Positions 5,704 through 6,746 of a stretch of 9,344 nucleotides of DNA are shown one piece after another. This DNA comes from a virus (lineage: Duplodnaviria; Heunggongvirae; Uroviricota; Caudoviricetes), in IMG/VR virus record IMGVR_UViG_2636415858_000001. One strand, 5' to 3'. Position 1 is the first letter of the stretch; every line of letters starts with the position of its first letter. Under the pieces are notes generated by a model that worked only from the letters and a program-made list of their open reading frames with translations, did not search any database and was not told the DNA's origin. The translations under genes were made by a program, and so were the position numbers.

Positions 5704-5722
5704 GAACCCGCCCAGCGGGTTC
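5704..5722 (-). terminator. GC-rich hairpin 10 nt downstream of the AT-rich gene stop; possible (bidirectional) intrinsic terminator
   Basis: GAACCCGC-CCA-GCGGGTTC forms an 8-bp stem with a 3-nt loop. It is followed on the plus strand by TAAAGTGTTTTAATG and on the minus strand by TATTCAAATATACTTT; both U-tracts are weak, so confidence is moderate. Confidence 0.45.
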
Positions 5723-5731
5723 TAAAGTGTT

Positions 5732-6328
5732 TTAATGATTGTCGTGATAATTAATTGGCTCATCATTTTTTTTGTCTGGCATAGTTATGGACCACTTTAT
5801 ATTCTTTAGGCTGTTATGTTTTTTATTGACCTTAAGCTCTCTCTTTGCTTCAGAGATAATATCGTCTAGTAATACTTTTAATTTATCAAGTCTTGACTTG
5901 TGGGCATCTATCAACTCTATACTATCAAACACCCATTGTATAAATAGATTTTCTTCATTTTCAATGAATGAACGGATTTTATCCCCACACTCTTCTGTTA
6001 AGAATAATGAAGATAGCTCACCTATTCTACTGAGTTTTTCAAGCTCATTAGAGAAAGATTTGCTAAGGATTTCATTTTCTTCTTTTGATTTGTAACTAAA
6101 GTAGGTTGGGAATTGTGAAGCGTGATGTAACTCATGTTTATACCAATAGTCAGCTGTGTTTTTTAGAAGATAAACACAGTCAACTAATTACGTATACAAA
6201 TCTATTCTTTTGTCCCACCATTTTTCTTTATAATAACGGCCGAGTGCATATCGCGCAGTTAAGTAAGCTGCGATTGAGCCTGTAACAAGTCCGATAATTA
6301 CCTTTGATATAAGGTCATGCCAATCCAT
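5732..6328 (-). pseudogene. AT-rich membrane-anchored protein gene (about 197 codons) interrupted by a single in-frame TAA at 6188-6190
   Basis: Minus-strand ATG at 6328..6326 with AGGA 9 nt upstream reads MDWHDLISKVIIGLVTGSIAAYLTARYALGRYYKEKWWDKRIDLYT, then TAA, then the same frame stays open for 151 more codons (LVDCVYLLKNTADYWYKHELHHASQF...KKNDEPINYHDNH) with no in-frame ATG/GTG/TTG until near the end. That long open frame is improbable by chance in such AT-rich DNA. The ORF-track entry 5732..5932 is only the C-terminal tail from an internal GTG. Confidence 0.6.
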
Positions 6329-6746
6329 TTTTATTTTTCCTACATTATGTTATATAATTGTTCATATCATACAATTGTTGAGTATAGATGTCTCGTTATT
6401 CATCAACATTTACTCCTGTTAAATTAGGGGGAGTATGTATTAAAAATATTCATCTGGGTCGTCTAAATATTTTTGATAAACTAATAGCAATAACACTATC
6501 AGTATTGCCTGCCCTCACGTCGTTCTTGCTCTCGCGCGATTTTTAACTAAACACTAGCAGGATTTATCATGGTGCTACGCTACATTTACTTGTAGGGAGC
6601 TAAACAGATCATTGACGCTGAAAATATTCAAATTGTTAAAGAGCGAAGCGTCCTATGGGCGTTTTGTTGCTAACGAATCATCTTGGACTTCATATGCCCC
6701 AGGCGGCTACTTCGTGGGCATCCTGCCTGTTTGTTGTTTCGTTTTG

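Follow-up and report, generated by a model that had tools for sequence, protein, structure and literature searches.

A nonsense-inactivated copy of a temperate-phage accessory gene for a predicted membrane protein in a Shigella prophage at thrW

The 9,344-nucleotide (nt) stretch IMGVR_UViG_2636415858_000001, an IMG/VR record assigned to Caudoviricetes and referred to here in its full length as the window, carries part of a prophage in which a minus-strand reading frame (5732-6328) lies between the repressor gene and the early-left genes. The frame would be continuous but for one stop codon near its beginning. A first-pass annotation, made from the sequence of the window, described it as a probable recently inactivated pseudogene for a membrane-anchored protein, located where lambdoid phages carry superinfection-exclusion or abortive-infection genes. 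The locus thus raises two questions, namely, whether the gene is really inactive in this genome and what the intact gene does. The answer to the first is that 5732-6328 is a nonsense-inactivated copy (Gln47, CAA to TAA) of a temperate-phage accessory gene. As for the second, the overall best explanation, to which we give a probability of about 0.55, is that this is the pseudogene of a moron whose intact protein may exclude superinfecting phages.

A nonsense mutation at codon 47 inactivates the gene in the window

Translation of the minus strand from the ATG at 6328 to the final TAA at 5734-5732 gives a frame with a single internal stop, the TAA at codon 47, just as the first-pass annotation had it, but the repaired frame has 198 sense codons instead of about 197. 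The same 831 bp is found at 99.4% identity in 16 complete Escherichia coli genomes with an intact open reading frame (ORF) of 198 amino acids (aa), and in these codon 47 is CAA (Gln), one of the sense codons that had been listed as possible. These intact alleles, WP_001764244.1 and WP_032254852.1, are annotated as 'hypothetical protein'. Gln47 is kept in all close homologues in the protein alignment. The TAA together with a missense change, E133V, was found in all eight contigs that were fetched, including those of Shigella boydii ATCC 8700 (CP026731.1) and Shigella flexneri serotype 6 strain 64-5500 (CP026811.1). Because the TAA is present in independent assemblies, the stop is real and fixed in a Shigella lineage and is not a sequencing error.

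The earlier description of the gene as a pseudogene is therefore borne out by the CAA in the intact alleles, whereas the word 'recently' has to be qualified because the TAA is common to S. boydii ATCC 8700 and S. flexneri 6. Only one or two further changes have accumulated since the TAA arose. Between the window and the E. coli allele there are no synonymous and three non-synonymous differences in addition to the stop, and the promoter, the ribosome-binding site and the first 46 codons are identical in the two. Individual Shigella contigs carry further single changes, with 1-3 differences per 1.5 kb among contigs, which fits what is expected under relaxed constraint.

Can any other part of the protein still be made? 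There is no in-frame ATG, GTG or TTG between codons 48 and 132. The E133V change, which occurs only in the TAA-bearing lineage, makes codon 133 a GTG and with it the sole in-frame start codon downstream of the codon-47 stop. Since this GTG is the first in-frame start after the TAA, a 151-aa C-terminal product is not available. Orthologues that start downstream of the TAA, which had been considered as a way in which the pseudogene call could fail, are not what is found either, because the intact orthologues use the same ATG and keep the transmembrane helix. All that could be made in the window genome would be the 46-residue stub, which consists of the N-terminus, the transmembrane helix (codons 10-29, 6242-6301) and a juxtamembrane motif (RYYKEKWWDKR, 6206-6238), and the function of the gene would be lost. 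Such a loss fits the general decay of the prophage described below, and the dead copy alone is ordinary Shigella genome reduction. The value of the locus lies in the intact relatives, which form a compact single-gene family without functional annotation in a slot that hosts exclusion and defence genes.

Damaged alleles were also seen elsewhere. An independent frameshift in an A-run near codon 185, in the C-terminal part, is present in Shigella dysenteriae and a split ORF in one E. coli strain, and the family ORF is in two fragments at 5 of the 78 species-representative genome loci where it was detected. These may represent recurrent loss or homopolymer sequencing errors.

The intact gene belongs to a widespread protein family

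The repaired protein matches PHROG 17948 with an E value of 6.1e-95, its residues 1-185 aligning on the 185-position profile, and all 65 aligned relatives match PHROG 17948 and no other family. PHROG 17948 is without annotation and therefore membership in it says nothing on function. A literature search by accession or family name brought up no mention of it. When 1.8 billion cluster representatives were searched exhaustively with phmmer, 254 clusters (50% identity) matched at E<=1e-3, most of them of 150-200 aa and aligned from end to end. Of 84 tblastn-confirmed matches in species-representative genomes, 80 were kept as genome loci. The family is found in Proteobacteria, Desulfobacterota, Verrucomicrobiota, Planctomycetota, Bacteroidota, Gemmatimonadota, Chloroflexota, Bacillota and candidate phyla, and at least 136 viral contigs in IMG/VR have a confirmed member. 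Among intact enterobacterial orthologues the pairwise ratio of non-synonymous to synonymous substitution rates (dN/dS) is 0.14-0.21 for the pairs with estimable dS, which shows that this is a real gene under purifying selection.

A single hydrophobic segment is present near the N-terminus in 65 of 65 aligned members, and the hydrophobic N-terminal segment followed by a basic stretch, which had been recognized at first reading, was confirmed from the sequence. In the 55 members that were scored, the tail in front of the helix is on average 6 residues long and acidic, with 0.25 K/R and 1.07 D/E, while the 15 residues C-terminal of the helix have a mean of 3.96 K/R. By the positive-inside rule, the part that follows the helix would be cytoplasmic. 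Conservation in the family is highest in the juxtamembrane motif [RK][FY]YxEKWW[ED][KR], with W38 present in every member and E35 and W37 in nearly all; a conserved AKxxLK closes the C-terminal helix. An AlphaFold2 model built from the 65-sequence alignment has a pLDDT (predicted local distance difference test) of 89.9 and a pTM (predicted template modelling score) of 0.76, and has helices at residues 3-70, 82-104, 112-133 and 139-173, the final 25 residues being of low confidence. In this model the long helix 3-70 runs from the membrane into a compact four-helix bundle, and the up-down-up-down order of the helices would place the conserved residues 35-41, about 101 and 161-165 together at the membrane-proximal end of the bundle. 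The intact gene product is thus modelled as a protein of about 170-200 aa with an acidic N-terminus, one transmembrane helix, an interfacial motif and a four-helix bundle. When the family profile was run against the PDB with hmmsearch, only coiled-coil noise was obtained.

The gene lies in a mobile cassette with its own predicted promoter and terminator

The promoter predicted for the gene by a consensus scan (GAGACA, 17-nt spacer, TATGAT; Table 1) is not the one proposed in the first-pass annotation. The hexamers named there, TTGATG (6406-6401) and TATACT (6386-6381), are present, but they are separated by 14 nt and not by 16, and that assignment was rejected in favour of the one given here. 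Six orthologous loci were aligned, namely, those of Shigella, E. coli, Citrobacter, Raoultella and two metagenomic contigs, the proteins of which are 52-84% identical. In this alignment the -35 (G/A)AGACA, the 17-nt spacer and the -10 TAT(G/A)(A/G)T are kept while the spacer sequences are divergent. The AGGA ribosome-binding site that had been pointed out is present, and its AGG is found in five of the six aligned sequences, the P0005 contig having GAG. The hairpin reported after the stop codon is also there, except that it begins 7 nt and not 10 nt past the stop. An AACCCGC-nnn-GCGGGTT hairpin with a T-run follows the stop codon in four of the six loci, including those of E. coli, Citrobacter and Raoultella; in the window genome the T-run is weakened by a T>C change.

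The G+C content (GC) is 0.32-0.34 over about 5550-6600 and 0.46-0.50 in the flanks. Homology with phages SfV, SfIV and cdtI breaks off on the left at 5414 and resumes on the right at 6629 in SfIV, 6672 in SfV and 6768 in cdtI, while E. coli MB07152, which has the same repressor type, is homologous to the window from 8221 down to 6500. The left break at 5414 and the right break with MB07152 at 6500 set the limits of the acquired cassette at about 5415-6499. Thus, the region had rightly been called AT-rich and horizontally mobile, but the limits of about 5560-6840 given to it do not hold, because 6500-6840 is the phage's own probable left operator and promoter (OL/pL) and nutL leader. SfV, SfIV and cdtI have yfdQ and yfdP in the same slot along with one or two small unrelated genes, and PhiR29 has other genes there as well. 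In the locus L118 of MB07152 (NZ_CM129878.1) the slot contains, at 2526-3599 of that locus, the gene for a RelA/SpoT-domain protein of 357 aa whose match to the PADLOC candidate PDC-S33 has an E value of 1e-92. Since a RelA/SpoT defence candidate and other genes are found there, the slot is a variable one for accessory and defence genes.

A conserved partner gene was looked for in the 80 loci and not found, and the idea of a two-gene system was therefore rejected. Based on the conserved promoter and terminator, the deviant GC and its presence or absence between otherwise homologous phages, the gene is, as far as can be judged from sequence, a single-gene phage moron that is horizontally mobile.

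The 3' part of the cassette also has an inverted repeat (5467-5551) with 20-nt arms that are 95% complementary and 45 nt apart. The 301 nt from 5440 to 5740, which include this repeat and the terminator hairpin, fold better than shuffled controls (z = -3.25). A few E. coli genomes have the inverted repeat and its left flank too, about 92% identical, and there the match stops short of the gene.

The leader upstream of the cassette resembles nutL of phi80

Just past the repressor terminator there are three 20-bp-spaced GGTACA repeats, and they overlap a promoter-like sequence, TTGACA (6798-6793) and CACAAT (6776-6771) separated by 16 nt. GGTACA occurs 13 times in the window compared with 2.8 expected, and it is clustered here and in the cI-cro intergenic region, where inverted copies lie between cI and cro (7527-7597). 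These repeats are probably the OL/pL and right operator (OR) sites of the ymfK-type repressor, the assignment of OL/pL being derived from the GGTACA repeats and from the same layout in P22 and phi80. The number of 20-bp units varies, E. coli ECONIH4 having one unit fewer in the alignment. In two contigs with the TAA allele the match is 20 nt shorter, a difference that was not mapped to the repeats.

About 125 nt downstream of the probable OL/pL is a perfect rrn-type boxA, CGCTCTTTAACAA, at 6645-6633. The approximately 130 nt after boxA are conserved above the level of the coding sequence in the six loci and include a 'nutL core' hairpin. The leader of the window is 71% identical over 145 nt to the annotated nutL of phi80, and two other loci are 94-95% identical. 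RNAalifold gives 32 pairs, 4 of them with compensatory changes, and no Rfam family matches the leader RNA. It is on these grounds that 6500-6645 is predicted to be a phi80-type nutL leader that belongs to the phage backbone and not to the cassette. The next gene after nutL is N in phi80 and the membrane-protein gene in the window. A homologue of phi80 N was not found by tblastn in the window or in the orthologous loci, and SfV orf33 does not have an arginine-rich N-like N-terminus. The phi80-type nutL is common to prophages with different first genes, which are N, the RelA/SpoT protein gene, the membrane-protein gene or small ORFs. That it is shared among prophages in which a phi80 N homologue was not found raises a separate question, namely, how these phages antiterminate. 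Judged from the RelA/SpoT protein of MB07152, the position behind nutL is a defence-gene hotspot. As predicted from these signals, the gene would be placed where pL transcripts arrive first and yet would have its own promoter too.

Possible role of the intact protein

Our proposal that the intact protein has a role in phage exclusion or abortive infection is tentative and we put it somewhat below an even chance. It is derived by analogy from the position in the slot, the moron layout, the bias towards lysogeny modules in viral contigs and the likeness to small membrane-anchored superinfection-exclusion (Sie) proteins. Close relatives (54-84% identity) are always immediately downstream of an S24 repressor, and these repressors are of at least four different types. 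Among 78 viral loci, an S24-type repressor lies within 4 kb in 20, a tyrosine integrase in 23 and either of them in 38; in 12 of the 78 the repressor is immediately upstream, on the same strand and within 1.5 kb. Some of the neighbours in bacterial genomes also match defence models (GajA/OLD-type, BrxL, type III restriction enzyme and mad3). If the proposal is correct, then lysogens with an intact allele would make the protein constitutively from its own predicted promoter, and would make more of it from pL on induction. The protein would be tethered to the inner face of the cytoplasmic membrane and would interfere there with superinfecting phages, either by blocking genome entry at the membrane or by oligomerization and membrane damage once infection is sensed. 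Exclusion by this protein, if true, would give the list of prophage defences a membrane effector that is very small and easy to test, and the Q47* allele would then be a natural loss-of-function control.

The wider form of this proposal is more doubtful. According to it, the intact members of PHROG 17948 would constitute a new and widespread single-gene membrane-anchored anti-phage effector, unrelated to SieA, SieB, Sie2009 and Imm, in which the functional site would be the membrane-proximal EKWW patch, and which would have taken the position of the N gene behind a phi80-type nutL in lambdoid prophages in which a phi80 N homologue was not found.

How does the protein compare with known exclusion systems? 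Sie2009 is anchored in the membrane by its N-terminus, is expressed from the prophage and blocks DNA injection. The Sie2009-type gene of Tuc2009, orf2, is a small gene like that of the window; it codes for 173 aa, lies between repressor and integrase and is annotated as superinfection exclusion, but its host is Gram-positive, unlike that of the window prophage. Homology to it was rejected, the hhalign probability being 0.9% with only the hydrophobic segment aligned. SieB of lambda and P22 and SieA of P22 are likewise prophage-encoded membrane proteins that exclude superinfecting phages or abort their infections, and SieB is encoded beside the early-left operon as is the window gene. However, sieB is transcribed against pL whereas the window gene runs with it, and the hydrophobic segments of SieA and SieB differ from that of the window protein in number and position. 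Homology was rejected here too, with hhalign probabilities of 0.9% (lambda SieB), 0.2% (P22 SieB) and 0.8% (P22 SieA, hydrophobic segment only) and no match to Pfam PF14163 at E<=10.

In position the gene is also like nun of HK022, which lies behind pL where lambda has N, is expressed constitutively in the repressed prophage and excludes lambda. Constitutive Nun expression is reportedly supported by King et al. 2000 (cited in PMC5386594), to go by the title of that paper. Unlike the window protein, which is modelled as a membrane-anchored helical bundle, Nun is a soluble RNA-binding transcription arrest factor, and HK022 uses put RNAs while the window prophage has a phi80-type nutL. The PDC-S33 protein of MB07152 occupies the same slot behind the same ymfK-type repressor, OL/pL and nutL, but it is unrelated, having a soluble nucleotide pyrophosphokinase fold without a transmembrane helix; presumably it resembles CapRel. 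Lastly, Csx28 and tm-HEPN proteins of type VI-B CRISPR (clustered regularly interspaced short palindromic repeats) systems also consist of a transmembrane helix at the N-terminus with a small helical bundle after it and are of similar size, and weak hidden Markov model matches to tm_HEPN were obtained with 4 of the 65 members (E about 0.009) and to Csx28 with 1 of 65 (E about 0.01). HEPN proteins have an Rx4-6H motif, but the family has no conserved R..H motif, and these proteins are not among the listed fold matches, and so membership in this group was rejected.

Several findings weigh against a role in exclusion. The repaired protein has no match in Pfam, NCBIfam or PADLOC (PADLOC-DB v2, 0 families), and the 65 relatives gave nothing significant in these three databases, only sporadic sub-threshold PADLOC matches; this agrees with the earlier impression that no named family fits, PHROG 17948 being unannotated. 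The family is absent from the searched supplementary tables of two E. coli defence screens. In a raw count, matches to defence models make up a small minority of the 149 nearest bacterial neighbours, most of which are unrelated to one another. The fold is a generic four-helix bundle without an informative structural neighbour, and the predicted topology has the positive-inside rule as its sole basis. Lastly, in all phage loci that were examined the gene points the same way as the early-left operon, and in some phages it lies after N, beside xis, after lysis genes or in the head module. With this shared direction and these varied placements, a role in the lytic cycle is equally compatible with position.

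Such a lytic-cycle membrane function, in which the protein would be an early product made from pL through nutL and would act at the inner membrane during the phage's own infection, is the strongest of the alternatives but in our judgement less probable than exclusion. It could take the form of modulating host membrane proteins or proteases, of superinfection immunity in lytic growth like that of T4 Imm or of tuning lysis timing. In its favour, no other ORF comes between the gene and the probable pL with the conserved nutL, and the orientation of the gene is constant. Moreover, among distant relatives the gene lies directly after a lambda-type N gene in one lambda-like contig, and it is in the early-left operon beside xis/int in the temperate phages CobraSix and OS31. 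On the other hand, a conserved promoter of its own and a terminator directly past the stop are the layout of prophage-expressed morons, and a terminator after the first gene would hinder the early-left operon of phages in which no N homologue was found. The gene is also found outside recognizable phage early operons. In four enterobacterial prophages it has portal-side head genes on one side and capsid-side head genes on the other, one relative (P0014, 34% identical) comes directly after a holin-holin-endolysin cassette, and at some bacterial loci no phage genes were detected around it. In the other phyla the bacterial neighbours are heterogeneous and include integrases, transposases, a few GajA/OLD-type ATPases, BrxL, a type III restriction enzyme and mad3. 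In a lambdoid contig with a member after the lysis genes, the next gene (5611-5802 of locus L098) has a weak match to the Acb2/Tad1-hairpin family of anti-defence sponges, and accessory defence and counter-defence genes may share the slot after lysis genes.

The place of the P0014 relative, together with an Rz-like build in which an all-helical domain of about 150 aa comes after the transmembrane helix at the N-terminus, could also mean that the gene is a displaced component of a lysis cassette, that is, an i-spanin (Rz-like), a holin or an antiholin. This is improbable. The window gene and all its close orthologues adjoin the repressor and not a lysis module, there is no embedded or adjacent ORF for a lipoprotein (o-spanin) or with a lipobox, the charge distribution predicts a cytoplasmic helical domain whereas an i-spanin is N-in/C-out, and AlphaFold2 gives a compact four-helix bundle and not an extended coiled coil. 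Members are also present in metagenome-assembled genomes of typically monoderm phyla (Bacillota, Chloroflexota), and marginal matches to holin families were seen in only 2 of 65 members (E about 0.1). The i-spanin assignment was rejected on location, topology, fold and the missing lipoprotein partner.

It is equally hard to accept that the 46-residue stub, with its transmembrane helix and EKWW motif, is a functional small membrane protein in Shigella, either toxin-like or dominant-negative. Its promoter, ribosome-binding site and codons are unchanged relative to E. coli, the 46-codon ORF is kept in hundreds of assemblies, with gene calls for it in 493 public assembly blocks, and there is a very weak match to the Ldr type I toxin (E=0.27). 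Clonal descent and a short divergence time explain this retention, however, and the frame downstream of the stop is almost intact too, so that selection on the stub in particular is not apparent. The Ldr match is far below threshold and the whole prophage is decaying. The last alternative, that the TAA is a sequencing error or is read through in a programmed manner so that full-length protein is still made, is of negligible probability, for the otherwise intact frame and nothing more speaks in its favour, while the same TAA recurs in complete genomes that are independent of each other and in many assemblies that are drafts or derived from reads, the intact alleles encode Gln, and the lineage-specific E133V and the other non-synonymous changes fit relaxed constraint. 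Of all these explanations, the pseudogene of a possibly phage-excluding moron is the one we prefer.

The prophage at thrW

The features of the window are given in Table 1.

Table 1. Coordinates of the features discussed in the text
Feature	Position	Strand	Remarks
proA	1-1254		
tRNA-Thr gene thrW	1369-1444		
Tyrosine integrase gene	1459-2622	minus	excisionase gene next
IS3-family element, 1.26 kb, two ORFs	3053-4311		inserted among early-left genes
HD-family hydrolase gene	4773-5309		last of three early-left genes after the IS3-family element
Acquired AT-rich cassette (GC about 0.33)	5415-6499		replaces yfdQ-yfdP-orf33 of SfV-type phages
Intrinsic-terminator-like hairpin, 10 bp, GC-rich	5702-5724	minus	begins 7 nt past the stop codon
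Pseudogene, 198-codon frame, predicted single-pass membrane protein, phrog_17948	5732-6328	minus	translation, intact alleles, PHROG match
Codon 133 GTG (E133V)	5930-5932	minus	missense, only in the TAA-bearing lineage
Premature TAA, codon 47	6188-6190	minus	CAA (Gln) in intact alleles
Residual 46-codon ORF	6191-6328	minus	N-terminus, transmembrane helix and juxtamembrane motif
AGGA ribosome-binding site	6338-6341	minus	9 nt upstream of the ATG
Predicted sigma-70-type promoter	6366-6394	minus	-35 GAGACA (6394-6389), 17-nt spacer, -10 TATGAT (6371-6366); consensus scan
Predicted phi80-type nutL leader RNA	6500-6645	minus	phage backbone, not cassette
Probable OL/pL	6735-6798	minus	three 20-bp-spaced GGTACA repeats, just past the repressor terminator
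cI-type repressor gene (LexA/S24, ymfK-like)	6838-7512	minus	upstream neighbour defining the slot; terminator 6807-6826
cro-like gene, then ymfL-like gene			beyond the LexA/S24 repressor gene
Two further IS3-family elements	8444-9344		IS911-like and IS629/IS1203-like (ALIL frameshift pseudoknot 9299-9344)

That the prophage is at thrW, as had been stated at first reading, is confirmed; the tRNA gene lies beside the integrase gene. The prophage is a decaying SfV-like remnant riddled with insertion sequence (IS) elements. The IS3-family element among the early-left genes we take to be IS600-like, and the two at the right end cut the prophage short behind the ymfL-like gene. In its backbone the prophage corresponds to phage cdtI and to SfV and SfIV, which are serotype-converting phages of Shigella, and the parts in common are 87-94% identical. 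The IS load points to a Shigella genome as host, one most like S. boydii, and so do the matches of the allele to protein fragments from S. boydii and to S. boydii ATCC 8700. An intact version of the prophage follows phoE-proB-proA-thrW in the 55.8-kb circular record NZ_JBREQR010000004.1 ('plasmid pE401651_55'), which looks like a mis-assembled or circularized chromosomal segment rather than a true plasmid.

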